Part shown: in pieces, positions 24,568 to 42,699 of the stretch
Numbering within the stretch: position 1 is the first letter of the stretch
Layout of the letters: each line of letters starts with the position of its first letter
Origin: an uncultured Acidobacteriota bacterium
Lineage (GTDB): Bacteria; Acidobacteriota; Terriglobia; UBA7540
Reading direction: 5' to 3'
Length of the DNA: 64,000 nt
Assembly: GCA_963804995.1 (NCBI GenBank)
Contig: CAWDSK010000006.1
Location: forward strand, 1 to 64,000
Position numbers and translations under genes: made by a program
Notes under the pieces: generated by a model
What the model saw: only the letters and a program-made list of their open reading frames with translations
Databases searched by the model: none
Told to the model about the DNA's origin: nothing

Positions 24568-24569
24568 AA

Positions 24570-27500
24570 TTAATTCGTCCCGACCGCTTGCGGTGTGGTT
24601 ACCGACTCAATAATTTTGTTGAATTCGCTTTCGACCTTCGCCTTAAAATCGGCCTCCATCTGGTAAACGTCGCCGAACTCCGCAAAAGCCCAGCGGCCAT
24701 ACGTGCCCAGGTTGTTCACCCCCGGCACCCAGTATGTCTCCATGGTGGACTTCTTCTCTTTTGCGTCCTCTCGGCGATAGCCCTTGATTTCGACAATCAG
24801 ATGCAGCAGGTCATCATCGCCGCGTCCATCGTCCACCAGCACGATAAAGTCCGGGCGGTAAGTTCGGGTTTCCGAACCGTAGCGGTAAGGTACTTCCAGC
24901 CAGAGGTTGTGGTTCTTGGCGTAAGCCCTTACCCGCGCGTGGGACTCCGCCACGCGGCAGAATTCCGCCTCCCAGTCGCTGTCCAATATCACCCAATTGA
25001 TGTGGCAGCGCCGGGCGTCGGTTTCCCAGCGGTCAGTCTTTGAGGTATTGAAATTCACATGGATCGTGGAACCCGTGGGATTGTACGGGTCGAGCAAAGC
25101 CTTAATGGGCCTCTTGCCTAACTCGGCTCGGGTAATGCCTGCCGTGATGCGCTCGCAGGCCATATCGGCCAGCGTCTGGTACATGAGCTGCGCAGGGTAG
25201 GTGCCGCCTTTGCACACCAGACACGTATCAAGCCAGTCTTTGGTGATGCGCTTCAGTTGGCCAAAAAGGTACAGCTTCGGTTCCTCGCCGGGATCGCGCC
25301 ATTTGGTGAACAGCAGGCGGTGGGTCAGATGATACAGCAAGGTGGACCGGCGCAAATCACCGGTGTGGATCAGGGTGAGTTCAACACCCTCGCCAATGAT
25401 GCCGGAATTGTGCGTAATCGAAGGCCCCACCAGATCGGGCGTAAGCTCGAGCACGGAGTCTTCATTGAATTCCGCTTTCAGTCGCTCCTCCGGCAATTCG
25501 ACTCGGTAACCCTGAACACGGGGGAAGCGGATTTCCAGGTGGTCGCGATCAGGGCGGACCGCCTTAACGTGAATCGTCTCTCGCGGCAACTGGGGTGAGG
25601 CGATCACCGGCTTGGCGTTGAAATCGAACGGAATGCCCAGGACGTCCGCATATTCAACGTTGAACCGGTCCTCCTCGTTCAGGTCGTAAGATTGCCGGCG
25701 CAGCGCCCGGCCGATGACCTGTTCACAGAGTAATTGCGTGCCGAAAGCGCGCACCCCCAGCACATGGGTGACAGTGTTGGCATCCCACCCTTCGGTCAAC
25801 ATCGAAACGGAAACCACGCATCGGATGTCACCGCCCAGGCGCCCGTACTTGCCGACGGTATTCCGCACCTCGCGGAGTAAATCCTGGTCGCTGATGTTCT
25901 CACCCTGGTTGCGGTCGCCCGTGCGTTCGATAATTTCGCGTCGAAAGCGTTCGATTTCATCGGCCGCCAGGGTGCGAAATCTGTCATCAAGAGGTTCCCC
26001 GGATTCCAGTTGCTCGCTGTCGATCAAGAAGGTTCGCGGGCGCGGAATGGGATTGCCGTGCTCGTCATAGTTGCGGAACAGAGGCAATCGGCCGTTCTCC
26101 AGCATGGTTGAGCCGTCTTCGTTCTCTCGCTGGAAGCCGGAGATATAGTCATAGACAAGTTTGGAGGCGGAGGTATTGTTGCAGACCACAATAAAGCAAG
26201 GTGGAACCTTAATTCCGCTTTGTTGCCACAACTCGAAGGTCTTTGCATAATGCCCATAGAGGGCTTCGAGGGCCGTCTGGAGTTCGACCGGAATGCTGAG
26301 TGGGTCGAGCGCGTTGGCCTTGCCACGCCCCTTCTTAGGCATTTTGTTCCGAATGTGCTCCCAAAGGTTGCGAAATATGGGCATGTCGCTGCCGGGAATA
26401 TTGTCAGCAATGGGCACGCGAGGCAGCTTGACGATTCCGCATTCGATAGCGTCCATCAGGGAGAAATCGCTCATCGTCCAGGGGAACAGTGTGCCCTCCG
26501 CGTAGCCGGAACCACGCAGGAAAAAAGGCGTTGCCGAGAGGTCAAGAATGCGCTCGACGCCCAGCTTGCGGCTGACGATTTCAAGGCCCGAGATCCAGAG
26601 GCGCGCCCGCTCATTGTTCTTTTCGGCTTCCTTCTTCTCCTCTCCCTTTAACTCGCCCTCGCCGTCGGACACAGGCTTTTCGCGATAGCAGTGGTGCGCC
26701 TCATCGTTGATCACCAGAATGTTCTTCATGCCCATCAGCTCGGGCATGACGCGCTGGAGCATCTGCCCCTCGGTTTCCTCAGTAGCGAGCGCCTCACCAT
26801 GGCCCTGGAGAAGCGCCCGACCACCCTTGGACAGCTCCATCCGCTCGCGCAGCTTGAAGGCGTGGTAATTGGTAATGACAATTTTGGCGCGGTCAAGATC
26901 GGCCAGCATGTCGGCGGGGACGAGTTCGCGAGCCTGGTAGTACGCGTCGGGATCGTTCGGTTGGAGAACCCGCAAGCGGTCTCGGATTGTGAGGCCCGGA
27001 GTAACAACTAGGAATCCGCGGGTGAACTTCTTGCTTCCGGGCCTTCGCACGGCGTTAATCGTCTGCCACGCGATCAGCATGGCCATAACCGTCGTCTTGC
27101 CGGCTCCGGTCGCCAGCTTCAGCGCCAAACGCGCCAAGCCGGGATTGGCATCATGGTTCGCGTTCTCCAGGTGACCGAGAAACTTCTTTCCCGCCGCCAG
27201 CGCGGGCGCCACTTCGATCAACCAAACGGCGACTTCCACGGCTTCGACCTGGCAGAAGAAGGGCCGGATGCTGCTGAACGGGTGGTGCCGCCAGTGCTGC
27301 AACAGCCGGGCGGTTTCCGGCGTAACGTGCCAGTCGCTCGGGTCTTTTAATTTGCGCCACGGATCGATGTACTGGCGGAGCTCATTGATGATGGGCGTGG
27401 GGTCGTATTGCTGCGCCTGACTGGACAGACCTTTCCCTTCATCGAACACCATGGCCTTCTGTTCGGCAGCGGCTTTGTGCTTTCGCGCCTTGGGCACGGG

Positions 27501-27635
27501 CACAATGAACTCGGCGCGACGCCGGCTTTCAATTATCCGTTGAGTCGGCTGCCCCAGCGCATCAAGCTCCCAGTGTCGTACAGGGTACTCATAGGGAGAA
27601 TTCAAGATGGGCTTCTTGAAAAAGTCGTTATCCAT
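24570..27635 (-). CDS. res: Type III restriction endonuclease subunit (BPTD_3080-like Res: SF2 helicase + PD-(D/E)xK)
   Basis: Motifs LATGAGKT, NDEAHH, LSATP, MLTEGWD and QVIGRALRR; nuclease YRPDFIV...IVEIKG. Confidence 0.9.
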   Translation of the reverse strand: MDNDFFKKPILNSPYEYPVRHWELDALGQPTQRIIESRRRAEFIVPVPKARKHKAAAEQKAMVFDEGKGLSSQAQQYDPTPIINELRQYIDPWRKLKDPSDWHVTPETARLLQHWRHHPFSSIRPFFCQVEAVEVAVWLIEVAPALAAGKKFLGHLENANHDANPGLARLALKLATGAGKTTVMAMLIAWQTINAVRRPGSKKFTRGFLVVTPGLTIRDRLRVLQPNDPDAYYQARELVPADMLADLDRAKIVITNYHAFKLRERMELSKGGRALLQGHGEALATEETEGQMLQRVMPELMGMKNILVINDEAHHCYREKPVSDGEGELKGEEKKEAEKNNERARLWISGLEIVSRKLGVERILDLSATPFFLRGSGYAEGTLFPWTMSDFSLMDAIECGIVKLPRVPIADNIPGSDMPIFRNLWEHIRNKMPKKGRGKANALDPLSIPVELQTALEALYGHYAKTFELWQQSGIKVPPCFIVVCNNTSASKLVYDYISGFQRENEDGSTMLENGRLPLFRNYDEHGNPIPRPRTFLIDSEQLESGEPLDDRFRTLAADEIERFRREIIERTGDRNQGENISDQDLLREVRNTVGKYGRLGGDIRCVVSVSMLTEGWDANTVTHVLGVRAFGTQLLCEQVIGRALRRQSYDLNEEDRFNVEYADVLGIPFDFNAKPVIASPQLPRETIHVKAVRPDRDHLEIRFPRVQGYRVELPEERLKAEFNEDSVLELTPDLVGPSITHNSGIIGEGVELTLIHTGDLRRSTLLYHLTHRLLFTKWRDPGEEPKLYLFGQLKRITKDWLDTCLVCKGGTYPAQLMYQTLADMACERITAGITRAELGKRPIKALLDPYNPTGSTIHVNFNTSKTDRWETDARRCHINWVILDSDWEAEFCRVAESHARVRAYAKNHNLWLEVPYRYGSETRTYRPDFIVLVDDGRGDDDLLHLIVEIKGYRREDAKEKKSTMETYWVPGVNNLGTYGRWAFAEFGDVYQMEADFKAKVESEFNKIIESVTTPQAVGTN

Positions 27636-28379
27636 GTTCGTCGAAACCGCTCAAGCAAGGAGTAGAAAGGCCAGACAGATATTACTCCGCGACAGCCAAC
27701 TTTGCCAGTCGTTCCGGGGTCGCCATTGCATAGGGGCAAGGGACTCAATTACGGCGGTGGACGGCGCGAAGGCTCACCTGATGAAGAATCTCAGCTTTTT
27801 GTTGTACAGGAGGGCGCGTTTAGAGTTCGACCACACCAACGCCAGGTTCCCCACGTAGAGTCTGGTCGTGACAGCCTTTCCATCCGTGAGTTACTTTCAG
27901 TCGCGCTGCCCACAGACTGGTGATTGTGGGGCGAGGGATTCGGCTTCTCGTATCATTGCAGAATCAGAAGGTTACGGCTAATAGGTGAGGTTTCTGGGCG
28001 GCAAGTCGCGAAATCTACTGACTTCCCCATCAGTAGCACCACTTTAAAATCCCGGTAAATGCTGATCTCCCCACACACGTTTGTGCGAATTGCGTGCGGC
28101 ACCCCACCAGAAGTGTACTCGTGGCCCCACGATTAGCCAGTTCTTCGGATGCGACCTGCCAGTCCCGAGGTCGGTATCGCTCACAACTATTCGAGGAGAT
28201 TCGACGCGGGTACCCTGGTTTCTCCCAGATGCGAGGATAGTCTGCGTGGCGTAAAGCAGCACGACGAGGGCAACTCTCGAACTTCAATAAGCCACCAGAA
28301 GCTGTTCCAGCCGGGCAACGAGGCCCAATGGAGTGGAGGAGCGGCCGGCAATAATGGTCGTCCGTTTATTGCCATGGCT

Positions 28380-31300
28380 TTAACCTGCCTGCGAGAGTAT
28401 CTCGCTGGCGGCCCGCGGTAAATTTCTACCGACAACGATTTCGTCGACCAACCGAGTTGGGACAGAGGAGTATTCTTTCAGGTCATACAATACGGGGTCG
28501 GCAGGGTCATCCGGGGCCAGCGGTGCACTCAAGCCAATTACCAACTGCCCCGCACCCTTTCTCGACAGAAGGATCGGGGCAATGACATGTCCCAATCCTG
28601 GCACATCGAGTTGGGCATTGCGCGTGAATACGACGCCTTCATCAGCCTGCCTTTCTAAGTCCTTGAAGAGAACATCCGTCGAAGCTCTGAGTCTTGCCTC
28701 TGTCCACTTCGGGCGTTCGCCGGTGAGCAGATAACGCAATAATGCTGCGCCCAATAGACGGTCGAGCAATTCGTGTTCAAACTTGTTCTTGTAGCTACGC
28801 AGGCAACGATAGCAGGACCGGTCGCAGTCGCAGCGCTCTAGGATGTCCAATGCTTGCTCGAACACCGGAAGTCCGCTTGCGCCTATTTGCTTTACAAAAC
28901 CGGCCCCCCCGGGGAGGGTGTCATAGAGGTAAATCTCAACCTCTTCGCCGCACCGCCCCAAGGGCGTGAGCGCAGGCCGATATTCCGCCTGAACTTCGGA
29001 TGGTTCGATTCGCAGCGTGCTACATGCTGCCTTTGAGATCGCTTCACTTAACGTCCTCAAGGCAATGTTCGTAGCTAAAAGCGAAGGGGCAAGTGATACT
29101 GGGGATTGCACCCGGAGGGAAATCAGTAGAACATCTGTGATGAAGTCTGTTCCAAGCACGATGCCCTTCGCTGTTCGTCCGCCTTCGCACATTGGTTCTC
29201 GGTCATCTGGAAATGGCTTCTGGTGTGCACTTCCAAGGCCCGGGGTCAAAGTAATAGCAGGCTCAATGCGACCACACAGAGTGCAGTACGAATACCCCTC
29301 ATCTTTGGGTCCGCGGTTCGTGACAAGCAAATGCTCCTTTAGGTGGTGGACGCGAATCCGTTCATTAACTAACGCCCATTTGGACTCATCAGCAGGGGTT
29401 GGGGCGACCAGCCGGGCTCGAAGTTGCGTAACTCTTCGCCGGCTGATCATCTGGAGAAACACCTTCATCTAGGAACACGGGATGGGCAAAACCGGGTGGC
29501 CGTAGCCAGTATTTTGCCTTTCCAAATGTTCCGATGCCGCCACATGCAGGACAATCTCTCGACTCGCCCCTTTCTCCTGCAGTAATCGCAATCGTCCGAG
29601 CATATTGGCAAATATTGCACTCATAGTAGAGCCTTCTGTTTTGCCAAGCTGAAGCACGCTCACGGCCAACTGGTGAATACACCGCGCCTGACGTAAACCT
29701 CTTACTGGCGATCCACACCTCCTTTCCCGGTGCGTATTGTGTGAGCGCGACCGATAGGCCCTGGGAAGGAGTGAACTGAAACTCGGGCCGGAAACGCGTC
29801 GATCTATCTCTGTCGAAAACGTAGAAGGTGGCCACATCGGTGGGAAAGGCGTAGCGCGGCAGAACGCCTTTGTAAAGCAACCGATCGAGTAAGTTCTCAT
29901 TGACCACATCGGCGCATGGAACTTCTTCTCCCTCTTCTGAGGGGACTTCCGAAACTAAAGAATCGTCCTCATCATTCTGCTTTACAGCCGTGGCCGATGA
30001 TGCGGCCGAATCAAATTCGATAGCTTTATCCACTTCGGTCACGGTGTCGGTTATCAGGCCTGTGAGTAATCTCGTGCGGTCAGCGTCGTTCAATTCAGTT
30101 GGAATCCAGGCTGAAACAGCCTGGCGAAGAGCACCCTCGTTATTCTGGAGCCATTCAACGAAATCGGTCCGACTCAGAATAGAGCCGGATGATTTGAAAT
30201 CACTGACCGTGCCGAGGACGGCAAATAAATGCGGCTGGTCTTCCGGCGAGATATCAGGGAGTTTGAATTCGTGGTACTTTTGAAATAAGAACGCCGTGAC
30301 GTGCCTGCGAATGATCTCAACATTATCCAGCGTCAAATGTGGATCTTCCACCGGTCCACGGATCATTAGGTCCGGATTGGTGAAGTAATGCTCATCGTGT
30401 GAGTCGGCGCTCCCAAAGGCTGTTACAGTTGCGATCGCGTTTCCGCGCCGACCAGCTCAACCCGCGCGTTGCTGATAATTTGCTCTAGCTGGCGGCATGT
30501 TACGTAACGAAACTCCCGACAGCGCGCCAATATCAATTCCTACCTCCATCGTTGTCGTGCATGACAGCACATCGATGGCGGGCCGTTCATGGTCGTTGTC
30601 ATCTGGCCCTAGATCAACATCTTGAAACAGCAACTCGTGCTCTTCTGCCTTCGAGAAAACATCCTTTGACTGTGCGTTATTCAATTGTGCTGTGTGCTCG
30701 GCTGCAATGAGTGATATGGGGGGTACGGGTGGGTCCTTGAGCACGAGAACCGTGCTGGAACGATAATAGCCCTTCCTGGCGATGAAAACGGGATCAATAT
30801 TCGGATCGATTGGCTCCGCGGTACCGTTAGCGCAATTCGTGCACATGCGTAGTCCGGGAAACAGACGTTGCGTCGTACGGCATGTGTTGCAATACGCCCA
30901 CTCACCGCCGATTTCGAGAGAAAGTTCGCCCCCCCTGAGGCGGTATTGATTTCCGACTTCTTCAGTAAACTTTTGCAAGAGCTTCGGAAGCCATTCGTTA
31001 GCAAAGGTAACTCTAGCATCTCGGCCACTCACAATATGCTTGAATAAGGTGAAATTTCCGGTGGCATGGGACTTGACGCGAGTCTTCCACCAAGCCTGCG
31101 GCGTCCTTCCAAGCCAAAACCCAAGGCGCTGCCACTGCTTTAACCACAAGCGAACTAATGCCACTTTTTGTGCCGTAGTGTTGGCTACACCAGAGATTTC
31201 CGGGAGATTCTCAATCGCTGTTCGGTGCCGACTCGCCTCCGTAACGGAAGCGAGCGCCAATGCTTCAAGACCGTAGTATCTGTCGGAGAATGTGTCCGAT

Positions 31301-33918
31301 ATTCCGGAGAGAAGGGACTCGGGAATTCTGGCGGCGCGCACTTCTCCCCAGGTCCTTAGCAGTTCGGTTGGGTTTTGCAGAACGTTGTTCCGGATTGCTT
31401 CTTCGACAAGCAGTTCCGCATTGAAGTCCTCTCCCGATCGAAGCTCCGGCCTCAGTCTCACATCGAGTAACTTCGCACTGAGCAGAACAGCGAGATACAG
31501 ATCCTCAATAGATATCAAAGGACCTATAGCGGGTATCTCCTGCAAGAGCTTGTACCCATAGATTATGAGGGGTCGGAGCGTATCCTGTGTCGAATACTTC
31601 TGAATGTTTGGAGCAAGCCTCGCAGCTGTTTGGCGGGAATCTGAGAAAATCAATACCTTGCGCCCGCGAAGCGGCGCAAGGCGAGTCGCGACAACCGAGC
31701 TAGGCGGTTGGATTTGAATCTGGCGCGTGATTAAAGCTTGGAATGGTTGATCGCCTTTCGTCTGGTGGTCTTGCACGGACGAACGGCCATACCCAGCGGA
31801 CTGACCGCAAACGGCACACGGTCGAAACTCTCCTTGAGATCCCGTGGGGGTTTCGACTCCCTCTTCGTCGTCCGGGGAAGCTGAAACAACCCGCGCGTTT
31901 CGCAGATACACGGTCCGAAATCTTCCAGCTTTCGGCGGGTTCAACCTTCCTGTATCGAGATCGAAGTCAGCTGGCTCGACCTCTCCATCCCCAGGATGCT
32001 CAAGGAGAAGGTCCAACGGTTCTAGTTCTAACTTTTCGCCGGCAGCAGTGCGCACCGGAATGCCTGATTCTTGCCAGAGGAAATTCGGGGCCTCAAGGTC
32101 GTCAGTAAAGGCACGAGCGTATGCTGTGCCACAGTTGCGGCAAGTAAAGAACTCTAGGATTCGGGTTCCGCAATCGCATCGTTCACGTGGCTGAGCATAC
32201 ATTTTTCCGGCTGGTCCGCCCCGTAGACCTTGTGGCAGTGCAGAACAATTTGGATCCATGCACACCCACAGCCCGGGCAGGCCTCGGTAAAACGAATGTA
32301 CTCGGCATGGAAGAAGCCCGGGCTCATCCGGAGACTTTTTTGCCAAACTTCCCAGGGCCATCAGCGCCGTAGTCGCGCGGTCGGCGATCGTATTATCGAC
32401 GCCAGGAAATATTAGAGCGGCCAGCCCCTCCAGGGGCTGCGCTTGTTGCATTGTTAGATTTACTATTAAATTCATTGGGGAGAAGCCGACGAGTGCGTTG
32501 TAGACCGTCTTGGAGAGGTCCAATGCACGTGCTTCTTGGCGGTAGTCGAGAAATGGCTGGATCGCATTCAGACGCATCACTTCCGATTCGGCGTAGAAGT
32601 GATCGAAATCTATAGAGGCCAGCGCTTCGGCATCCGCTCCAGTGCCCACAGATGCAGGTGAACGAAGGGCGAGGTCCCCTGTGATAGGGACGAATGAATG
32701 CGGGGTCTTTCCAGTGAGTTCCGCGCCGAACTGAGGCGCGTATGTGTAGTCACTGAAACTTGCACTCGTGCAGATAACCTGTATTCTTTCGGGCGGAATT
32801 CCCAGCCGCACCCGCAGCCGTCGAATGAGCAGCGCGACCTCGGCTCCTGCCGCTCCTCGGTACAGGTGCGCCTCATCGAGTACAAGTAGAAAGTTCTCCT
32901 TGGGATGATCATGTAGCCACCGCCGAGTCTCGTCAAAAATCGGGCGCTCAAGAGGACGCATCAGCATATATTCAAGCATCGAATAGTTGGTTACTATCAG
33001 ATCTGGAGGCGCTTGCTGCACTTCGTGCCGAGTCAAGAGTTCGGGATCATCAGCCAGGGTTACGCAGCGCTTAAATTCTCCATTCTTGTCCTGCCACCGT
33101 GAGCCGAGCCTTCCGAACCATGCGACCAAATCGGGCTTTGCAGGCCATTTCCCGCGTTTCTGCAATTCTTCGACGAGACTTTTCGAGACTTCACGTCGTG
33201 GGGAATTTGGATCTAATGAATTCAAAATATGACGAACGTAGTAAGCACCGATCGATGATAAACGCTCCTGGTCTTTCTTTGGGTCACGGACTCCCGGGTA
33301 AAGGGTCCTGCTCGTATACCGCGCGAAGCGTGCAGGGCGACCAGCCCATGTTTTGAACCGCAGGGTCAGGCGCTTATCACCGAACAACAACCTCAAACGC
33401 CCGAGCTGATCATTAACGAGTGCGTTCATCGGATACAAGATCATCGCCCTGACCGCAGCGTAATCCCGAAAAGAGCTAGGGTTCGCTGTCGCTTCCCTGG
33501 CAAGCTTGCCCAGTATTGGCAGCAGGAAACTCTCTGTTTTTCCTGACCCGGTTCCGGTCATTATCATGAGGCTTTTTCCTTTAACGAGAGATTGGTAGAT
33601 AGCCTCCGTCTGATGATGATATGGCGGGTCATAGACCAGTTGCCTTCCTTGCTCATTAGGGCTGCTTAGTGTTTCAAAAAGTCCGGCAATGTGGGGTTCG
33701 AGATTTTCGATGTCTCTAAATCTACATCCTGGTTTGTAGCGCGGGGTGCTCTCGATGTAAGGACGCTGATATATGACACCGAGGTCGTCAAGCAGTCTGC
33801 GCCGCTGGGCAATCAAGCCGGGATCACCAATGTGATACGTGGCCTCAATATACTCACGCAAAGAGCGCTGTAATTCGTTGATCGTTTCGTTGATTGTCGC
33901 TGGCATGTTATCTCCCAC
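28380..33918 (-). pseudogene. druE: Druantia DruE-like large DEAD/DEAH helicase with C-terminal DUF1998 (~1845 aa if intact), interrupted by a TGA at 30457-30459 and a +1 frameshift near 29422
   Basis: Motifs TGTGSGKTESF, YPMNALVNDQ, LDEAHLY, TTTMEVGIDIG and QRAG*AGRRG. DUF1998 YDTLPGGAGF...CDCDRSCYRC. The three ORF pieces are collinear. Confidence 0.85.
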
Positions 33919-34984
33919 TCCCGTCCTGCCGAACCATCCACATTCGTTCTTGAGCGAAATTAATTTCCGTGTCGAGTTGCGTCATGTCGAATGCATATGA
34001 GAACAAACAACCGGTGCTTACGACGGACCTACCGACGAAATCCCACCTCCGGCGAGCCCACAATGGCACAGGAGAGAAGAAATCGAGAAGCCTTTCGTTT
34101 GGGCGGGCGCCGTCACGCACTCGGAAAATCTGAGGTGTGCCTCTCATTGAATCTATTGCCTGCTGTAAGTGGAAGGCCTCATCGCAAGCTCTCCATTTGT
34201 GCTCATATATCGGCAAATCAAGTAGCTTTTCGAGCGCCCCGCCTTGGATTGAGACATAGCACCATAAATCGGCCCCGAATGGCTGCGGTCGCCTCGCGAC
34301 GAATAATCCGGTCTGAGTCTTTAGCGGTATCCACCTGGCCCGGTAGAATCGGACGGAGCGTTTGGGATCAAGCAAAATCATTTCCGGGATGGCCCCAGAA
34401 ATGCCCGCGAGGGCAAGTTTCTGGTCGTACTTTGCTACGTGGTTTCCTGCGGGGGCACACGATGGTAATCTCAACCACGCCTCTGGTTGCACCTCCAAAA
34501 GACCGAGATCCAAAAGGCGAGAGCGCGTCTTGATGTCCGCGTTGTGGATGGCCACTCGATAGTTTTCAAACGTTAATGTGACATCAATTTCCACGTCAAT
34601 TGGAAATCTTCCGTCGGGGTAGATACCGAATAGCAGCACTGTTGATTCAGACAGATATACGAAGCTCGGTGGAGCGGCGTACAACAGTTGAGCAGAGGTC
34701 TGAGAGGCAATATCCCTAGATTCAATAAAATCTCCGTAGGCCAGCAGCGAATCCAACATGTCCTCAATGTTGTCTCCGAGCTCCTCCGGGTCAAGATCGA
34801 AGCCTTCGAATGCCCCTGTGACTGTCCGAATAAGTTGGGAAGGTGGACAAGGGCAGAGGAAGGCTCCTGCTCTCCTCAAAAGAGCCGCAATGGCTTCGGG
34901 GGCAGTCATGTTGATGAGGTCGGATTCGAAACCGAGATCCGAGGCGGCAATTGACTGCACGGCTTCCACACTGATTTGCTGCAT
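33908..34984 (-). CDS. Druantia-associated hypothetical protein (358 aa; occupies the DruD/DruG-like position)
   Basis: ATG 34984. Overlaps the druE start and lies 8 nt from the upstream gene. No recognisable catalytic motif. Confidence 0.65.
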   Translation of the reverse strand: MQQISVEAVQSIAASDLGFESDLINMTAPEAIAALLRRAGAFLCPCPPSQLIRTVTGAFEGFDLDPEELGDNIEDMLDSLLAYGDFIESRDIASQTSAQLLYAAPPSFVYLSESTVLLFGIYPDGRFPIDVEIDVTLTFENYRVAIHNADIKTRSRLLDLGLLEVQPEAWLRLPSCAPAGNHVAKYDQKLALAGISGAIPEMILLDPKRSVRFYRARWIPLKTQTGLFVARRPQPFGADLWCYVSIQGGALEKLLDLPIYEHKWRACDEAFHLQQAIDSMRGTPQIFRVRDGARPNERLLDFFSPVPLWARRRWDFVGRSVVSTGCLFSYAFDMTQLDTEINFAQERMWMVRQDGSGR

Positions 34985-34992
34985 TATGAGCC

Positions 34993-37878
34993 TCAGTGAG
35001 CTACGTTGTCGGTAGACGGCTGCATTAGAGTGACAAACCTTGCCGTCCTCGCCAGGAGACGCTGCCGACGCAGGTAAGTGAGAGCGATGGCAAATTCGTC
35101 GGCAGCCCACAGGCGGACGCCTTCGGTGGCGCCGAAGGAGCGGAGAGCAAACTCCGTGATCCATTGATAGCCACTCATCCCGTGGTCATGTGCAAGCGAG
35201 ATGGCAGGGAGTTCAGCGAATTGGTGCAACGTGCGAACCAACAGCTTCGCTGCGCCATTTATGGATAACCATTTAAAATCGTCAGATTTTGTGGCCAATT
35301 GATTCAGGATATAGTTCTCCCTCGGGCTCGTGGAAATCGTCTCCTTGAACGTCTCAACAAGGTCGCGGTCTTGGTTCAGGGTACGTTCAATTGCGGCCCA
35401 TTTGTCGCCGCAGAGCAAGGCTACAATAGTATTCCTAAGCATACTGAGCACTTGTTCTTTTCGTATTTTTGCGAACAAGTCGCCTGGCAGGCGCGATCTC
35501 GACCACAACTCGAAGACCGCGAATATGTGATCGAGACGGTTCTCAGCGCTCTGCGTTCCAACACATGTACTTCCTAGGCCAAGATCGTTCAGAGAATGAA
35601 TCCGCGGCGGGATAACTACGGAGCATTGGTGGTCGCCAGATTTTCCGAGATACAGGCCGCCGTTTTCGGGAACCTGGAAGCCCGCAAGAAACTGAGGCCC
35701 GTTCAGTATTTCTTCCCGGTCTGGGTGGTCAAAGGACAGATACGACACCGTAATCGGTCGCTCCTCGTCGAGTTGAACGATGCGCAGAAAGTAGGATTGA
35801 TTCTGATGGCGTAATGCCCATCGTAGTGGAACAAACTCTCGCTCACATCGAACTTTCTGCTGACCTAATTCCCTGGTCCGAATATTGAGAACACATGCTG
35901 ATGCCTCGTCATATGCATTCTGCATGTGTTGAGTTTGAACGGCAGTTTTGAACGTGTTGAAAAATGTGTTGGCCGATACCGGTAATTTAATGGGACCAAA
36001 TTTGCGTTCAGCAATTAGAGCGGAGCAGTTCCGATCTCGATACATGAGGAGTTCCACCTCCGCATCATGGCAATCGGGCCCTAGAATCTCCACAACTGCA
36101 CTGCCTTCCCACAACTGCTCCATTGTTGGATTCGCCGGAGTAACAACGAGTTGGAGCGGCGAAGTGAATCCAGTGAGGTGATGTACGGCGCGGGGTGGCC
36201 TCACTTGCAAGTTAAGAGTTCCTATTGTTGCACGTTCCTGCGAGGCGTCGAAAAGGGAGAGCGTATACTTACCTTGGCCGAGTTCGCCAAGGCAAATGAA
36301 CATCGGATTCCTAATTTCACTCTGAGGAATAACCATCTCCGCTGGCTGTGGTCCTGAGAGACTCAGGACTAGGCCGGCTAAGGGAAAGTCAATCGCGATC
36401 CCTATACAGGGCCGGTCAGTATTCAGCCATTCGCAGGCACCCTCTCCGTCCCATACGGGAGGGACCAAACCGGCTGGCCAGACTCGAACTGCCCTAGCTG
36501 TGGTCAGTCCCAGTTCTCTAATTTTCTGTGAATAAGACTTGGAAATAGTTTCGGGCAGCGAAGTGCGAATCGCATGGATTCCAACGCATACCAATGTTAC
36601 GGGCGTGGCTCCTATGCCAGTTCCACAGAGAGGATCAGCACTCAGGACGACGTAGTCATTGCCCGGTCGTAAGATTTTGGTCAAATGTTCGACGGCTGAA
36701 CCGTCACTTGCACAGCGAAACACCCACGTTGGTCCCGGACGCAGCAAACACTCTGTGTGAAGCAGGCAATCAAGTTCTGGCACAGAATCGTCGAATTTCA
36801 AGAGCACTTGGCCTGTTTTTGGCCACCGAACAAGCGAAACCTCTTGTTCTGAAAATAGTACTCTGCCTCGGGCGAGCGGGCGGGGATCCCGCGCTCCAGC
36901 AACCGAGCAGCGCTGGCCAACGAGAATTTCCTTGAAGTTCGGAAACTTGGAGAGGAGGGGAGACAAGTTTGAAATTCGTAGCCGAACATCCCACGATCCA
37001 TTGGGGAGAGGGCGCAAAATGATTCTGGGTTCGATCCCGATTTCTCGCAATTCCCGTTTCGTACTGTTTTCATCTTCATCAGTTTGGCAACTCTCGCTTT
37101 TCTCGTCGAGTTCACCTACTGGCGCGCTGCCTTTTCGCAGCCCCGTCAGCCGAACCGCTGTAGCGTGCTGTCGAGCATCGCTCAACCATTCGCGCGACCT
37201 ACGCTCTAAATCCAAATCGGTCGCGATGCGTCGGCGCGTAGTCGGAAGGATCAGGCTGCTTGATTCTTCATTTTCGTTTAGCAGCAGAGAGGAGGCGATT
37301 TGTCCGACCAGGAGATGTTGTTCTGCGAGGTTTTGGAATCTCGAACTAGTCCTCCAACTGTAGGCCTCGATCCGTTCACCTAACATTTGCGGCGAACTTA
37401 GAAGTTCAGCATCAAAATAACCTCGGATGTCGTATAGAACTTCTGCGAGTTGCCGTTGAAGGTCTTTGGGAATAATGGCGTGCGTTATTGGCCAGGAGAT
37501 GATTGAAAAATGTTCAGCCCAACGGCCGTAGGGTTTTGCACCACCGAACCCCCGGTGAAACTTGCGAAAGGCCTCTCTAATCCAGTCACGATCCCCATGC
37601 ATTGACCAGCCGGGTGTACGGTCCGAAAAGGTCTGCCAGTATTCATCGCCGGAGAAGTCATACCCGATTTCGGTGGCGTAAACTACCCAGGCCAGCCAGT
37701 GGCGGTCCGACGGGCCAGTCTGCGCTATGTGATATTTTATGGCTTGTGAAAGAGCGTCGCGGTCAGATTCATTCATCCCATGCTCTAGGGCAAACAGAGC
37801 ACGCCTATTGCGATCAGGCTGCCGCTGCAGGGTCGCGAAATGCTGTTCGAGATTGACTTGCCATTCATTTAGTGTCAT
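34993..37878 (-). CDS. Druantia-associated large hypothetical protein (~961 aa; occupies the DruF or DruB/C-like position)
   Basis: Long ORF in an operon with druE. N-terminus WVVYATEIGYDFSGDEYW...THAIIPKDLQ followed by beta-rich regions. Confidence 0.65.
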   Translation of the reverse strand: MTLNEWQVNLEQHFATLQRQPDRNRRALFALEHGMNESDRDALSQAIKYHIAQTGPSDRHWLAWVVYATEIGYDFSGDEYWQTFSDRTPGWSMHGDRDWIREAFRKFHRGFGGAKPYGRWAEHFSIISWPITHAIIPKDLQRQLAEVLYDIRGYFDAELLSSPQMLGERIEAYSWRTSSRFQNLAEQHLLVGQIASSLLLNENEESSSLILPTTRRRIATDLDLERRSREWLSDARQHATAVRLTGLRKGSAPVGELDEKSESCQTDEDENSTKRELREIGIEPRIILRPLPNGSWDVRLRISNLSPLLSKFPNFKEILVGQRCSVAGARDPRPLARGRVLFSEQEVSLVRWPKTGQVLLKFDDSVPELDCLLHTECLLRPGPTWVFRCASDGSAVEHLTKILRPGNDYVVLSADPLCGTGIGATPVTLVCVGIHAIRTSLPETISKSYSQKIRELGLTTARAVRVWPAGLVPPVWDGEGACEWLNTDRPCIGIAIDFPLAGLVLSLSGPQPAEMVIPQSEIRNPMFICLGELGQGKYTLSLFDASQERATIGTLNLQVRPPRAVHHLTGFTSPLQLVVTPANPTMEQLWEGSAVVEILGPDCHDAEVELLMYRDRNCSALIAERKFGPIKLPVSANTFFNTFKTAVQTQHMQNAYDEASACVLNIRTRELGQQKVRCEREFVPLRWALRHQNQSYFLRIVQLDEERPITVSYLSFDHPDREEILNGPQFLAGFQVPENGGLYLGKSGDHQCSVVIPPRIHSLNDLGLGSTCVGTQSAENRLDHIFAVFELWSRSRLPGDLFAKIRKEQVLSMLRNTIVALLCGDKWAAIERTLNQDRDLVETFKETISTSPRENYILNQLATKSDDFKWLSINGAAKLLVRTLHQFAELPAISLAHDHGMSGYQWITEFALRSFGATEGVRLWAADEFAIALTYLRRQRLLARTARFVTLMQPSTDNVAH

Positions 37879-38586
37879 CTGTGGAATCAAGCCTTTGAGA
37901 TGACCGAGCCATTGCCCCACTACTGTTGCAAGAGTCTACACCACAGCCGGGACCAGTGAAATCGGATTTCTAGGGCTACAGTGCTGCTTGGCAAATGTGT
38001 TTGACCGATCGGTCGGGTGGGGTTGTGCTGCCCAAAGCTGTTTTCGCCCGCAACCCAAAGGGCCCGGGCGTTACACTTGTCTGCCTCTCCGCGCCAGCCA
38101 ATTCCGCGTCACCATTTGGCTCTGCGAATTTCTCGAGGCTTCATTCCCTTTGATTTGTCCGCGCGTGAATAAGGCGGCCAGCGGAGGAAACAAAATGATT
38201 GGGCTGGTGCATTCTCTCTGGACACGGCATTTGGGTTTCGGTCACGCAAACTACGGGCGATAATTATCTTGTTTCTGTCATGAGGTGCGCAGTGTGCCTG
38301 TAGTGAGGTATAGGTGGCGCGTGGACTCGCGAGCCGTAGCTGAATCACTGCAGACGATTCGGAAGAGAGACACTCCCACCAGCCTCGCCTGAAAGCAATC
38401 GGGAAGAGGCTGAAGTAAAGCTTGTCACCCTGCTACGCGGCACGTTGCCAATTCTCGTCATTGCATTGCTCGCCATCTACTTTGAGCAGGTCAGGAAGGT
38501 AAGGAAGTCGCCGAAGTCGTGCAAGGGCTCGCATAAACCGGTTTCGGACCGAGAAAGGAACTCCGCCTGGCGACACTGAATGAGAG

Positions 38587-40569
38587 TTACTCCTCCGTAC
38601 ACGACGGCAAGATGACGCGGGCCCCATGCTCTAGAGGGTAATTGACCGAGTGCTTCTCAACTTCAGGCAATGTGTCTTCTCTCAGAATCCTTTTGGAAAG
38701 CCACCTCTTTATCCAATAATCACCAATTTTTCGAGTTACTTCCCTTGGATTTGACCTGCCGTATATGAAATTGGCCCGCTTCGCTACCCCCAATAAAACC
38801 TCTCGAAAATTTGAGGCGAGGCTTATGCCATAAATTATTCGCGCGTTCCCGTGCATTAACAGCGAATCGGACGGCAGTCCAACAAGGGCGAGCCCGTCAC
38901 GGATCTTTCGAAACCTCGGATTAACGCCCTCGCCGAAGATACTGTTGACCCTGCGGCCCCCCTCACTCCTTGCCAACAGCACTTCGATTTCGTCTACGGT
39001 CGTCGGCGAAAGGTGATTCGAGCCGAACCCGAGCGACCGGCCCAACAATTCGTATTGCACTCCCGTTGCGGGCTTTCCGCCGACCTCTTCCGCAGGTATC
39101 CTCAAACGGTTGTATTGGCTGGAAGCGACGCCGTACAAACTTGTGGTCCCAAGTAGGACGAGTTGCGGCGTACGAAGGGCTGGTTTTCCGGCCATGGAGG
39201 AAGCAATAATGCTGGGAGTATTCCCATACCGCCGTTCGTACGCTACCGCAACCTCTGGGCTCGTAACGAGCATGGCGACCAGCTTTCCTCCGAGGAGAGG
39301 GTTATATGGAGCCACTGCGCCGCAAACCATGATATCTAGCATGTCGATGCCGATGTGACTGGCCTTCATATGCCGGATGATCACCTGGATGCCCCTTCGT
39401 CCTGGACTTGTCTTCAGTGCTAGGCCGAGAGTGTGTTTCGTGGGGGACTTGAATCCGGCTTCAAGTAAATTGAGTCTTGCTGCGAGGAGTTCGGCTAAGA
39501 CTTTTGCCCGCTTCGCCCTGAATAAGTACGATCGGGCTTCCTGCTCCCAGTCCTGTGTTGACTTCTTGTGTTGGCTTGACTTAGGGAATTTCCTATGCCA
39601 CTGACGAGCTAAGACGGCTTCCCTTAGTAGGGTGTCGACGATCTTTGGCGATGGGCTAAGCAGGTCTCTGCGCCTGACAATTTGTTCCTCTAGAAAGTCA
39701 TTGATATACACTGCCTTGACAAGTCGACTCCATGACTGCCAAATCCACTCCGCCCACCGTTTGGTCGGTTTTTGTTCGAGGCTCTCGATAAATCTGGCCG
39801 GCGTCCACCCTATCCAATTATCGCGCGGCGTCAATTGCACCACAGCACTCCCGAGTGCAGCGATGCCGATGATCGGATGGTTTTCGGCGGCCGCGTCCCG
39901 GACCAGAAGGCAGACTTGTCGTCCGGGCACGCTGTGGTATGGAATGACCCACGTATGTCTGAAGTACCGCCAAATATCGGCTAACCTGAGGCCAGTGAAT
40001 TCACAGGTTGCGCCTCGCTCGACGACTTGAATGTAAGGATCAATGCAGGCTCGAAGTGACTCCAGCCTCTTGGCTTCGTTCTCGCAATGGTCTATGGCCC
40101 GGAGTTTAGCGCTTAAGTCGGGTCCATCGCGCACAAGGGATAGGACCGACACCCAGCCGTTTGCTCCGACCCGTTTTGTCTCCATGCTTCGGATGAATTG
40201 CCGTGTGGCTGGAAGACAAAGCTGTGAGTCTCGTTCGAAAAGGTGGGCCTCCCGCACGCGTTGCTTCTCTAACGAAAACGAACTTGAGTCCGCTTCTGGG
40301 GGACAGCCCCAAAGCTGGGGCCCCTCCACGCGGAAAGTCCACCCTTGAACCCGAAGGTCGCAAAGAACTGAGACGCAGACCCGGAGTTCGTGGTTGCACT
40401 TGCCGGCTTCCTCTGCGGCTCTGAAGGCAGTTGTGCGAAGGGCCGCCGTTTCATTTCTGTCCGCGATCTTCCCTAGCTTTCGCGCAAACTCGAGCAGAAG
40501 GGCCCTTGCCTTGCCGTCGGAAAGGAGATTGGGCTTAAGTGGAACACAGTCTTTGTGCTGCTCGCTCAA
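38587..40569 (-). CDS. druA: Druantia DruA-like DUF4338 protein
   Basis: Segments WRYFRHTW...VPGR...LVRDAA..HPIIGIAALGS, CGAVAPYNPLLGGKLVAML and TTSLYG..SSQYNRL. Confidence 0.8.
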   Translation of the reverse strand: MSEQHKDCVPLKPNLLSDGKARALLLEFARKLGKIADRNETAALRTTAFRAAEEAGKCNHELRVCVSVLCDLRVQGWTFRVEGPQLWGCPPEADSSSFSLEKQRVREAHLFERDSQLCLPATRQFIRSMETKRVGANGWVSVLSLVRDGPDLSAKLRAIDHCENEAKRLESLRACIDPYIQVVERGATCEFTGLRLADIWRYFRHTWVIPYHSVPGRQVCLLVRDAAAENHPIIGIAALGSAVVQLTPRDNWIGWTPARFIESLEQKPTKRWAEWIWQSWSRLVKAVYINDFLEEQIVRRRDLLSPSPKIVDTLLREAVLARQWHRKFPKSSQHKKSTQDWEQEARSYLFRAKRAKVLAELLAARLNLLEAGFKSPTKHTLGLALKTSPGRRGIQVIIRHMKASHIGIDMLDIMVCGAVAPYNPLLGGKLVAMLVTSPEVAVAYERRYGNTPSIIASSMAGKPALRTPQLVLLGTTSLYGVASSQYNRLRIPAEEVGGKPATGVQYELLGRSLGFGSNHLSPTTVDEIEVLLARSEGGRRVNSIFGEGVNPRFRKIRDGLALVGLPSDSLLMHGNARIIYGISLASNFREVLLGVAKRANFIYGRSNPREVTRKIGDYWIKRWLSKRILREDTLPEVEKHSVNYPLEHGARVILPSCTEE

Positions 40570-40571
40570 CG

Positions 40572-42086
40572 CTAGCTCCCGAGAAAGGCCGCCAGAATAT
40601 TACTCCAAGCTATGCGCTTTCGGTTGTACCAATATCGTTGCTGGGGATTGACCGCTTCTGCCTCGGCTCTTGCCAGCGAAAAAAGAAGGCAATCGATGCT
40701 TACTCGCAATTCCCTGGAACCCTCTCCGCAGAGTGGGGCATAGACACGGTCGAAAAAAGGATGGTTACGGTTAAGGACCAACACGAGGGCGCCACGCTGG
40801 CGCTTCAAGGAATAAAAGGCCTCTTCGCGTAAGGGAAGAATAGATAGAGCGTATTTGGGGTTTCGATCCGTGCCTCTAGAAAGGGAAGAGAGCATCGGAG
40901 GATGCCGCCCTCCTGCCTTCTCTGGAATCGGGGGAAGGTATTTATCCCTTTGAGAGAGAATCTGAGCCGCGGGAGTCTTGGGGCGATCGTTTACCTTCGA
41001 ATATGCACGCCGGACGCGCGAATTCAGCGTGTGTGCGATGGCTTCGAGGTCTGCAGTTAGAATAGCTTCCAATTCGGGGCTCGGGTGAATAGCCTGCTTC
41101 GTGTAAGTCGGCCGGAAGTACTCGTCCAACTCCGCTCCGAAGGCTATCTCACATCGCCACCAATCGTCATAGTTTTCTCTTCGCTTCTTTCCCATGAAAT
41201 GCCAACCGTAACTGACCTCGCGACCTGCCCTTACAAGGGATGCGCCAGCGCCTTTGACAATGCCGTACCGGCGCTTGTCCTCAACAGGCAGATCGTGCCA
41301 ATCGGCGACTGGGAGTTCCGAAAAACGAACACAAATAGCTGAATTCCTCCCTGGATTGCCTGGCAGCCGGAACTTGTACGTGAGGGGCTTGGCGTAGATC
41401 TTGGCGCCGGTGAGGGGCGTGTCATGGTGGCAGAAGAGGGGATCAACGGGGACCACTCGTGTCCCGTTGATTGAGATCTCGACCCCGGCCCAGATTGAGT
41501 ATCGAAATATCCTTCCGATTTGGTTGCGCAGCTTTTCCCCTGAGACCGAGGTTGGCGTCTTTTCCAGCCTGTCGCATTTCCGCCAAACGACTAACGTGCC
41601 TGTTGCGCCTGAATAGGCTCGTGCCCATCCGGGCAATTTGGCGCTTCGGGGAGGCGGGATCTCCCGCATGGTGCCGTCGGCGATTTCGTCTACATCCAAA
41701 TACGAGTAGAGCGTACCGCCAGATCTTCTCCACGTGTAGATTTCCAGCCTGCGGGCTTGACTCAGTGAACTGGAGGGTAATCCCATGCCAAAGCGACCGG
41801 GGCCTGTCCGGTCATTGAATCGCGTTGTGCCCCCGAACTGTAAGGCCGCCCTGAGAGTGCGGTCGTCCATTCCGCAACCGTTGTCTAGGGCTGCAACCGT
41901 GACGCCGTGGTCCTTTTGAGATGTATCTTCTGTTGTAATGAAGACGCGCACTTTACTTGATTTGGCCTGAATGGAATTGTCCAAAAGTTCTGCAATTGCA
42001 TATGCTGGCCCTCCGTACCCGACCTCTCTAATTGCCAAGATAAAGTTCTGATCAGCCACGATGGAGAAGTCCCGTTGCAGTCCCAT
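40572..42086 (-). CDS. MORC-like GHKL (HATPase_c) ATPase
   Basis: Bergerat-fold motifs AELLDNSIQA, DNGCGM, GRFGMGL and GTLV, followed by an S5-like region. Its stop lies 2 nt before the druA start. Confidence 0.85.
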   Translation of the reverse strand: MGLQRDFSIVADQNFILAIREVGYGGPAYAIAELLDNSIQAKSSKVRVFITTEDTSQKDHGVTVAALDNGCGMDDRTLRAALQFGGTTRFNDRTGPGRFGMGLPSSSLSQARRLEIYTWRRSGGTLYSYLDVDEIADGTMREIPPPRSAKLPGWARAYSGATGTLVVWRKCDRLEKTPTSVSGEKLRNQIGRIFRYSIWAGVEISINGTRVVPVDPLFCHHDTPLTGAKIYAKPLTYKFRLPGNPGRNSAICVRFSELPVADWHDLPVEDKRRYGIVKGAGASLVRAGREVSYGWHFMGKKRRENYDDWWRCEIAFGAELDEYFRPTYTKQAIHPSPELEAILTADLEAIAHTLNSRVRRAYSKVNDRPKTPAAQILSQRDKYLPPIPEKAGGRHPPMLSSLSRGTDRNPKYALSILPLREEAFYSLKRQRGALVLVLNRNHPFFDRVYAPLCGEGSRELRVSIDCLLFSLARAEAEAVNPQQRYWYNRKRIAWSNILAAFLGS

Positions 42087-42193
42087 TTGCGTTTCCTTTC
42101 TTTGCCTAGTTCAATTCCATTAAGATTTAATAATCGTACGCACGATTTGTCAAGGAAGAACTTTCCCCGGACTGCACGTACACCTCGACGCGA

Positions 42194-42412
42194 TTAGTTG
42201 AGAGATTGGGCCGCCGTGGGCTTAACATACCCGCAGGGGCAGCGTCCCGTGCTAGGCGAAAATCGGTGCGAACGGTAAAGTGGGCATCGAGGGTAGAGCC
42301 GGGGTTGTCCACCAGTATGCGGAACAAGATTGGCTCGTTCAGGCCTTGGGATCTTTGCCCACCGTTTGCGTGCAAGCTTGGAGGCGTGAATGTCTTTGCG
42401 TTTCTTGGTCAT
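42194..42412 (-). CDS. Small basic protein with a Cys/His cluster (possible Zn-binding regulator)
   Basis: 72 aa with a K/R-rich N-terminus and C-x5-H-x8-C-x-C. Same strand, just upstream of the MORC gene. No clear RBS. Confidence 0.35.
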   Translation of the reverse strand: MTKKRKDIHASKLARKRWAKIPRPERANLVPHTGGQPRLYPRCPLYRSHRFSPSTGRCPCGYVKPTAAQSLN

Positions 42413-42699
42413 TCGAAGGCGAGATTGTACGATATCCTTGGACTAGCTGCATACAGCTTTCTACTTTCTGCAATTCGTGCCCGACCGAGACTTGTGCCGT
42501 CGCCCAATCCTACTACCAGTAATTCCAAACATATTCTGGTAACTTCACTGTTCTCTGCTCACATGGGCACCCGTTGGGCTGACCCGAAGACAGCATAAAG
42601 AATGGTCATGCATATATGCAAATTCAGGCCGTCTCAGAGGGGGCTTAGCCCAACCTAGGGAGACGTTCTCGCGCAGCCAGCCTGGCATAATAATTCTCA

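Follow-up and report, generated by a model that had tools for sequence, protein, structure and literature searches.

A Druantia type I variant with a predicted MORC-like ATPase and a long-form DruA in an uncultured Acidobacteriota bacterium

The window, by which is meant the whole stretch of 64,000 nucleotides (nt) that was analyzed, covers positions 1 to 64,000 of contig CAWDSK010000006.1 of an uncultured Acidobacteriota bacterium (Terriglobia; UBA7540; GenBank assembly GCA_963804995.1). It includes a variant of the defence system Druantia type I, in which the type I genes are joined by a module of a MORC-like GHKL ATPase and a long form of DruA and in which a protein of 961 amino acids (aa) replaces both DruB and DruC. 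The locus was interpreted, with a probability of about one half, as a non-canonical type I member composed of two cassettes, one holding the ATPase and DruA and the other a helicase effector, which may cooperate as outlined below. The original prediction, made from the sequence alone, had proposed a new or hybrid Druantia subtype with a MORC-DruA module serving the DUF1998 helicase. This fits the results: the adjacency of the two genes was found to recur, and the locus did not fully match any existing subtype model.

Druantia type I belongs to the large defence systems that were discovered in 2018; type II is DruMFGE and type III DruHE. Type I is formed by DruABCDE (Doron et al. 2018, as tabulated in PMC7251935). 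The locus resembles type I both in content and in gene order: DruA (DUF4338), DruD and the DUF1998/MZB helicase DruE1 strongly matched the PADLOC type I models (DruA1, DruD1 and DruE1), with DruA first and DruD and DruE last. The Pfam family DruA (DUF4338, PF14236) was also matched, in two stretches (E 1.1e-35; 123.7 bits against a cut-off of 27). The locus differs from type I in being without DruB (none of the nine large open reading frames (ORFs) scanned matched a DruB model, and the gap downstream of DruA is free of ORFs), in being without DruC (the 961-aa protein matches no DruC model), in the added ATPase upstream and in a PD-(D/E)XK gene downstream in intact relatives. A search with the DruB1 model PDLC00003 was uninformative, as it matched 0 of 4 genomes with this type of locus, 0 of 154 and 0 of 401 genomes, but also 0 of 14 controls. 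That no existing subtype model includes the ATPase was borne out, the sole PADLOC match of this protein being MzaB (E 1.8e-14), within the N-terminal domain.

The five predicted co-oriented genes were all present on the minus strand, but the DruE of this copy consists of three ORFs, which jointly cover positions 3–1772 of the model PDLC00013 and include both the DEAD and the MZB domains. At the junction of the first two genes the TAG stop of the ATPase is followed by CG and then by the TTG start of DruA, confirming the predicted spacing of 2 nt. Read from this junction, the ATPase and DruA are presumed to be translationally coupled. The tight linkage of the 961-aa, 358-aa and DruE genes was likewise verified, with 8 nt between the 961-aa stop and the DruD ATG and 1 nt between the DruD TAA stop and the DruE ATG at 33906. 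The longest ORF in the 961-aa frame starts from a GTG at 37920 and is 975 aa.

The evidence for the two-cassette arrangement comes from surveys of related loci. From the ATPase side, a 31-member alignment yielded 80 loci in species-representative genomes that belong to many phyla. DruA was directly downstream and co-oriented in 78 of 79 ATPase loci (L011–L089; phmmer annotation), and in the single exception the contig ends 371 nt past the ATPase. These loci span Acidobacteriota, Gemmatimonadota, Myxococcota, Pseudomonadota, Planctomycetota, Spirochaetota and others. From the DruA side, an alignment of long DruA sequences retrieved 80 metagenome loci, 71 of them with the ATPase immediately upstream, including L128, a near-copy of the window. 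The remaining loci were eight without room for the gene and one (L161) with a truncated DruA. The predicted adjacency is thus recurrent from both sides, and the ATPase and the long DruA form an almost obligate gene pair.

The short form of DruA has 376–416 aa and matched PADLOC model PDLC00002 in the three sequences scanned (L090, L122 and L124). According to the positions of the Pfam and PADLOC stretches, the long form has in addition about 165 N-terminal residues and an insert of about 145 residues. No ATPase was found upstream of the short DruA in the six loci examined (a Nitrosococcus watsonii plasmid and L122–L126), and therefore the ATPase goes with the long form. Three of these loci, all from Acidobacteriota genomes, have the short DruA followed by NurA-like and HerA-like genes without DruD or DruE (L122 8726–12855, L123 2301–6351 and L125 8754–13200), and this DruA-NurA-HerA arrangement is a three-gene cassette.

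The partners of the pair were tallied in 69 well-flanked loci, defined by at least 6 kb on each side and a DruA of at least 600 aa, and a recognised partner was present in 68 of them. The commonest, the block of the 961-aa protein, DruD and DruE1, was found in 37 loci (23 of 48 and 13 of 21 in the per-collection tallies). A second, longer GHKL paralogue was the partner in 14 loci, a distant relative of the 961-aa protein, of about 1000 aa, together with an SNF2 helicase (DpdE/DrmD/BrxH-like) in 13, and DruE1 without the 961-aa family in four; nothing was recognised beside the pair in one. The 961-aa block was located downstream of the pair on the same strand 30 times, upstream and divergent 14 times, downstream and convergent nine times, and upstream on the same strand twice. 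Every relative orientation thus occurs, which suggests two transcription units that are kept together.

The partner class was also followed on a quick tree of 146 DruA sequences (FastTree), in which 68 well-flanked rows were labelled, with labels that depend on the visible flanks. The class changes at least 16 times on this tree, against a mean of 28 and a minimum of 24 with shuffled labels, and is therefore clustered yet often exchanged. The ATPase-DruA pair is a portable cassette that stands next to a helicase-containing or GHKL partner nearly always.

Within the class with DruE1 but without the 961-aa family, canonical-looking DruB/DruC/DruD/DruE1 blocks were present in five to eight loci. 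The DruB-like protein of these blocks (545 aa) matched PDLC00005 over its N-terminus only in five loci (E 6e-10 to 4e-14), while a DruC-like protein and a DruD of the PDLC00009 type were each found in eight.

Several further gene arrangements were observed around the partner modules. The protein of about 1000 aa and the SNF2 helicase (L127 1673–11518, L208 8917–14924 and L209 8989–14882) occur either behind the ATPase-DruA pair or alone on Leisingera and Rhizobium plasmids, and a convergent 340-aa gene lies 3' of them in 13 loci. An ECF-sigma-like gene of about 192 aa (Sigma70_r2 and r4) accompanies the second-GHKL class in 15 loci (e.g. L015 13762–14340 and L030 7267–7857). A genome from another family of the same taxonomic class as the window (G047, L009 3515–9742) has a GHKL2 of 635 aa, a 200-aa ORF, an ATPase of 496 aa and a DruA of 672 aa; downstream of these come a Sel1-repeat protein and genes that are unrelated, and neither DruD nor DruE is present in the next 10 kb. 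A family of about 351 aa follows the long DruA directly in 22 loci of several partner classes (e.g. L081 13602–14639 and L041 13598–14653), in some of them between DruA and the 961-aa gene. It has no Pfam or PADLOC match and is absent from the window.

The AlphaFold model of DruA (pLDDT 87.5, pTM 0.86) was compared with 48,161 chains by VIA-align. Residues about 170–607 matched GNAT/acyl-CoA acyltransferase folds in 49 of the 50 matches listed (Z 7.3–9.0), the top match being Mom of phage Mu (PDB 8bv8; Z 9.0, rmsd 3.5 Å, 164 residues, 10% identity). Mom modifies DNA adenine. Foldseek gave weak matches for DruA (E ≥ 0.35, malonyl-CoA decarboxylase first), and when solved structures were searched by sequence no match had an E below 0.2. 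From the model, DruA is predicted to have a GNAT acyltransferase fold, with an architecture of about 170 N-terminal helical and beta residues followed by a GNAT fold that is split by a helical insert. Invariant polar residues in the GNAT core include Y422, K429, Y448, S453, S457, Y479, Q485, Y486, E547 and R554. The conserved C416 G417 A418 ... G428 K429, which follow a beta strand in the model, would sit at the CoA-binding place of GNAT enzymes. DUF4338 has also been called a GNAT domain independently by the Aravind group (PMC10853773). A binding prediction for the ATPase with DruA residues 1–420 gave a score of 0.00 with controls not run, and has no bearing either way.

DUF4338 matches were present in 36 of 401 Acidobacteriota genomes, a tally that includes one unpublished genome (G663). 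Besides DruA, DUF4338 ORFs of about 320–360 aa or about 796 aa were observed in many near-identical copies per genome (G1003, G995, G873 and G762; loci L100 and L117), with up to 85 first-look candidates in G995. The multiple copies suggest that the domain is carried by a mobile element.

A profile of 31 homologues of the ATPase, compared with the sequences of the Protein Data Bank (PDB), matched MORC2, MORC4 and MORC3 best (E 9e-11 to 1e-8) and MutL and SMCHD1 next, all within residues about 27–159. All four ATP-binding motifs that characterize GHKL ATPases (Iyer 2008) were found. E33 is present in at least 90% of the 31 aligned sequences, and D36, N37, D68, G70, G72, G97, G100, G102 and T164 are invariant. 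A profile of the C-terminal 330 residues matched no PDB sequence at E ≤ 5. Residues 281–291 (GASLVRAGREV) fit the MORC S5 motif GhXhhpXXRhl at 10 of the 11 positions, with E at a hydrophobic position, and G281, R286 and R289 are invariant in the 31-sequence alignment. The predicted label MORC was borne out for the GHKL domain, with its PDB matches to MORC2, MORC3 and MORC4, whereas an S5 domain is putative. The ATPase family is large: of the 8000 candidates that were scored, at least 3000 proteins reached E ≤ 1e-10. An assignment of the ATPase to MzaB was rejected, as the NCBIfam score was 63.7 bits against a cut-off of 850 and the match covered residues 16–222 only.

The 961-aa protein had no match in Pfam, PADLOC (even at E ≤ 10) or NCBIfam, and by sequence it matched no solved structure at an E below 0.2. 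Its homologues (24 aligned) have 29–43% identity. The structural model (pLDDT 80) includes helical parts at residues 1–260 and 790–970 and between them a beta-sandwich array at about 300–770, which in structure resembles the MG arrays of complement C3 and FN3/Ig arrays (E about 1e-6). Compared by hhalign with an alignment of DruB-like proteins it gave a weak match restricted to the beta region (E 2.2e-4, probability 45%), and with DruC-like proteins E was 0.64. The protein represents a distinct family, which is also found with the short DruA and without the ATPase. Its relation to E. coli YjiT was weak (hhalign E 0.18), and phmmer with YjiT found no match in any fetched locus; the nearest ESM Atlas clusters (score 0.94) include YjiT_N in 10–21% of their members, which is a lead only.

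Between DruA and the 961-aa gene is a gap of 708 nt. It contained no noteworthy ORF, no Rfam match (E ≤ 1) and no minus-strand promoter-like or terminator-like site that was convincing above shuffles, and tblastn recovered nothing of the families of 351 and 192 aa seen after DruA elsewhere. In 30 co-oriented loci DruA and the 961-aa gene are separated by -4 to 4118 nt. Because this spacing varies widely, the gap was interpreted as the junction of the two modules and not as a lost DruB. A decayed gene was also rejected, no remnant having been found.

A close relative is a four-gene form on the Nitrosococcus watsonii plasmid pNWAT01 (NC_014316), composed of a short DruA, a protein of about 955 aa, DruD and DruE1, and the same form is present in two Acidobacteriota genomes (L124 and L126). 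Its 955-aa protein is homologous to the 961-aa protein (32% identity over 848 residues, E 6e-138), and its DruD and DruE1 belong to the same families as those of the window. It differs in its DruA, which has 410 aa (PDLC00002, E 2e-217) and is without the N-terminal stretch and the insert of the long form, and in having no ATPase upstream.

Prokaryotic MORC and paraMORC ATPases have been predicted to act together with nucleases and SF2 helicases in systems of the restriction type (Iyer, Abhiman and Aravind 2008, PMC2292703). The window ATPase shares with them the GHKL motifs and the genomic linkage to such helicases and nucleases. That paper mentions no GNAT or acetyltransferase as a partner (0 occurrences of either word). 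In Druantia type III, as described in a bioRxiv preprint (10.64898/2026.05.12.724681), DruH has N-terminal helical and Ig-like domains and lies upstream of a YprA-type DruE. The 961-aa protein shares this general layout of a helical domain and an Ig-like array, but has no PADLOC match to DruH, and type III is without DruA, DruD and the ATPase. Phage Mu Mom, the top-ranked structural match of the DruA core by a margin of less than 1 Z over many ordinary GNAT enzymes, differs in being a counter-defence protein of a phage. The Mza system is similar insofar as MzaB is the only PADLOC or NCBIfam family touched by the ATPase; the match covers the N-terminal GHKL domain only, and no other Mza genes were among the PADLOC matches of the nine large ORFs scanned.

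Remains of type III were observed in the E. coli K-12 genome (L210, NC_000913.3, 12415–16856). There yjiT corresponds to the N-terminal half of PADLOC DruH3 (E 3.7e-241) and the pseudogene yjiV to the middle of DruE3 (E 1.6e-285), and therefore K-12 carries Druantia type III remains next to mcrBC. A remark on the YjiT family in 10.64898/2026.05.12.724681 agrees with this.

In the proposed mechanism, the first cassette would be the MORC-like GHKL ATPase and the long DruA, and the second the 961-aa protein, DruD, the YprA-type helicase DruE1 and normally the PD-(D/E)XK nuclease. The ATPase would dimerise on ATP as a DNA clamp or looping engine, like MORC and MutL, and position DruA. The GNAT domain of DruA would then move an acyl group onto DNA or a DNA-bound target, and this transfer would license or trigger the effector cassette, in which the 961-aa protein may recognise or scaffold while DruE1 would unwind the invading DNA and the PD-(D/E)XK protein would cut it. 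The partner modules are all helicases or nucleases, which points toward a DNA-directed reading, and the polar residues invariant in the ATP-binding motifs of the ATPase and in the GNAT core of DruA are signs of active enzymes. According to the preprint 10.1101/2025.09.15.676423, type I DruE carries an inactivated Vsr-like nuclease domain, and this fits a nuclease supplied in trans.

Several points weigh against this interpretation. The Z score of Mom is tied with those of ordinary protein or small-molecule GNAT enzymes (Z 7.3–8.6), and therefore the fold gives no indication of a DNA substrate. The MORC likeness applies to the GHKL domain, with the defining S5 fold putative, and the DruA N-terminus may be winged-helix-like by a reading of secondary structure alone. 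To our knowledge, no biochemistry exists for the type I parts. The 961-aa block also occurs with a short DruA and without the ATPase (on the N. watsonii plasmid and in L124 and L126), and therefore the ATPase is not essential to the block. The spacing and orientation of the cassettes vary and their partners have changed repeatedly, a pattern that two neighbouring systems could give as well. Finally, the window copy itself has two disruptive changes in DruE and is without the nuclease.

The main rival is a protein-directed regulatory acylation, in which the pair would be a sensor or switch: the ATPase would sense a phage cue, and DruA would acylate a partner or phage protein and so toggle the effector. 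This was considered somewhat unlikely. Most of the 50 DruA structural matches listed are N-acetyltransferases that act on proteins or small molecules, the same module is combined with unrelated effectors in the manner of a generic regulator, and the ECF-sigma-like gene stands with the pair in 15 loci of the second-GHKL class. Druantia III is described as being without a modification arm, with the Ig-domain protein DruH proposed as the sensor (10.64898/2026.05.12.724681). The 961-aa protein, DruE, the SNF2 helicase and the second GHKL are the candidate partner targets, but the four partner classes share no evident conserved acceptor, and MORC/MutL-type GHKL ATPases are DNA-acting engines (PMC2292703).

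Co-location of two systems is the weaker rival. That the pair might be a separable two-gene unit had been raised earlier, and this stood insofar as the pair is a self-contained cassette with at least 16 changes of partner, but not insofar as it was alone in just one of the 69 loci. As an independent defence system that merely shares defence islands with helicase blocks it is improbable. In favour of it, the orientation and spacing relative to the block vary, the G047 locus has GHKL2, GHKL and DruA followed by unrelated genes, the 961-aa/DruD/DruE1 block occurs with the short DruA, and the 1000-aa protein and SNF2 helicase occur without the pair on the Leisingera and Rhizobium plasmids. Against it, the partner was unrecognised in only that one locus, the partner class is clustered on the DruA tree, and DruA of either length heads the DruE1 blocks examined and is by definition part of that system.

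The two-cassette type I variant appears to be damaged in the window, as seen from a sister copy of the same genus (genome G001, contig L008; 99.24% identity over 14,261 nt). In L008 DruE is intact (1841 aa) and is followed by a 469-aa PD-(D/E)XK protein (Pfam PDDEXK_1, E 3.1e-14; weak PADLOC DruK/Cas4 matches). A homologue of the latter lies 3' of DruE in 11 of the 13 loci with a complete DruE, a DruD and room beyond. The window differs from L008 by 105 substitutions and three 1-nt insertions. DruE is interrupted by a stop (CGA>TGA at 30457–30459) and by a +1 frameshift (extra T at 29422), the remaining insertions being at 38131 in the gap and at 28281 (extra T) in the nuclease remnant. Similarity to L008 ceases at 28211. 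Contigs of four public peat or wetland runs have an intact DruE (CGA, without the insertion at 29422) and diverge from the window at the 28211 junction, too. Each of the 24 listed public runs holds 0.79 of the sampled words, and therefore these contain the sister variant and not the window's own strain.

The nuclease was truncated at 28211 by a real rearrangement, which joined it to a type III restriction-modification cassette. This copy is probably inactive unless both DruE changes stem from errors of assembly; because the nuclease truncation is real whatever the cause of the DruE breaks, it is probably non-functional in either case. The type III pair (21760–28211) abuts the break in similarity and appears to have replaced most of the PD-(D/E)XK gene.

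All four disruptive differences (one C>T and three insertions) fall at TCGAG. Between the copies (window 28211–42471 against L008), 10 of the 23 [C/G]TCGAG sites differ, including five of the six CTCGAG, compared with an overall difference of 0.76%. The altered sites have mostly C>T at CpG, plus three adjacent 1-nt insertions. The pile-up may reflect methylation-linked mutation, basecalling error or something else. CTCGAG is moderately under-represented genome-wide (observed/expected 0.66).

That the DruE stop and frameshift were introduced by erroneous sequencing or assembly at a motif of modified DNA, with the gene intact in the living cell, is a real if not the favoured possibility. The concentration of the changes at TCGAG agrees with it, and the assembly of nine contigs of up to 2.17 Mb suggests long reads. 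Genome-wide, however, removal of a T from TTCGAG restored long ORFs in 0.63% of cases, no more commonly than with control words (0.39–0.72%), and the context STTGAG was without clear enrichment at in-frame TGA stops. Deamination of methylated cytosine at CpG gives C>T, and the observed substitutions are equally expected from it. The window variant was found in none of the 24 public runs, and the truncation at 28211 is not of this kind.

The coordinates of the genes of the locus and of its downstream neighbours are collected in Table 1. The upstream neighbours are an M28 peptidase, an NnrS-like protein and a radical SAM protein.

Table 1. Features of the Druantia locus and of the adjoining restriction-modification genes in the window.
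Feature	Position	Strand	Basis or remark
GHKL (MORC-like) ATPase, 504 aa	40572..42086	-	Pfam HATPase_c_3, E 4.7e-19
Long-form DruA, 660 aa, TTG start	38587..40569	-	PADLOC DruA1 PDLC00001, E 1.9e-175, residues 38-658
Intergenic gap, 708 nt, gene-free	37879..38586		ORF, Rfam and promoter/terminator scans
961-aa protein (P975), in the place of DruB and DruC	34993..37878	-	ATG at 37878
DruD, 358 aa	33908..34984	-	PADLOC DruD1 PDLC00010, E 3.9e-104; PDLC00012, E 2.7e-84
DruE1 piece 1	30457..33906 (ORF 30457-33918)	-	PDLC00013 positions 3-1121, 1285.7 bits; DEAD domain
DruE1 piece 2	29389..30456 (ORF 29389-30366)	-	PDLC00013 positions 1153-1449
DruE1 piece 3, MZB/DUF1998 zinc-binding domain	28380..29468	-	PDLC00013 positions 1449-1772; Pfam MZB, E 7.9e-14
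PD-(D/E)XK nuclease gene remnant, about 225 nt	28211..28435	-	Similarity to L008
Type III restriction-modification Res	24570-27635		Downstream of the Druantia locus
Type III restriction-modification Mod	21760-24567		PADLOC MTase_III, 1437 bits

In a full-text search no published link was found between Druantia and GHKL, MORC or GNAT proteins, with the reservation that Doron et al. (2018) and the bioRxiv supplements could mention one. None of the DUF4338 literature found by full-text search ties the domain to an ATPase, and the words GHKL, MORC and HATPase are absent from the text of the YprA preprint (10.1101/2025.09.15.676423). The PADLOC paper, which sought extra genes for the systems of Doron et al., reports Druantia type IV and, in its accessible part, nothing on type I.

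In the literature searched, no mechanism is assigned to the accessory proteins of type I, and the ATPase would be a second nucleotide-driven engine that, as far as was checked, has been left out of the definitions of this type. Annotation tools could be improved by adding models of the ATPase, of the 961-aa family and of the PD-(D/E)XK gene that lies downstream. The GNAT fold of DruA, the conserved catalytic-looking residues of both the ATPase and DruA, and the existence of cultured carriers (Halotalea alkalilenta DSM 17697, Castellaniella daejeonensis JCM 16240, and Corallococcus and Myxococcus strains) make the system experimentally testable.

The pair could also be a non-methyl DNA-marking arm, in which an ATP-driven clamp moves the Mom-like acyltransferase along DNA and the mark, or the lack of it on phage DNA, separates self from non-self for unrelated effectors, although this is unlikely. 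If so, the effectors served would be the DruE1 blocks, the SNF2 blocks and, for the short DruA, also NurA-HerA; DruA would correspond to the methylase in BREX, DISARM or restriction-modification, which would place Druantia type I among the modification-dependent systems. The presence of the ATPase-DruA pair in at least four partner modules points to DruA as a general front-end of helicase-based immunity, in the role of a modifier or a sensor.

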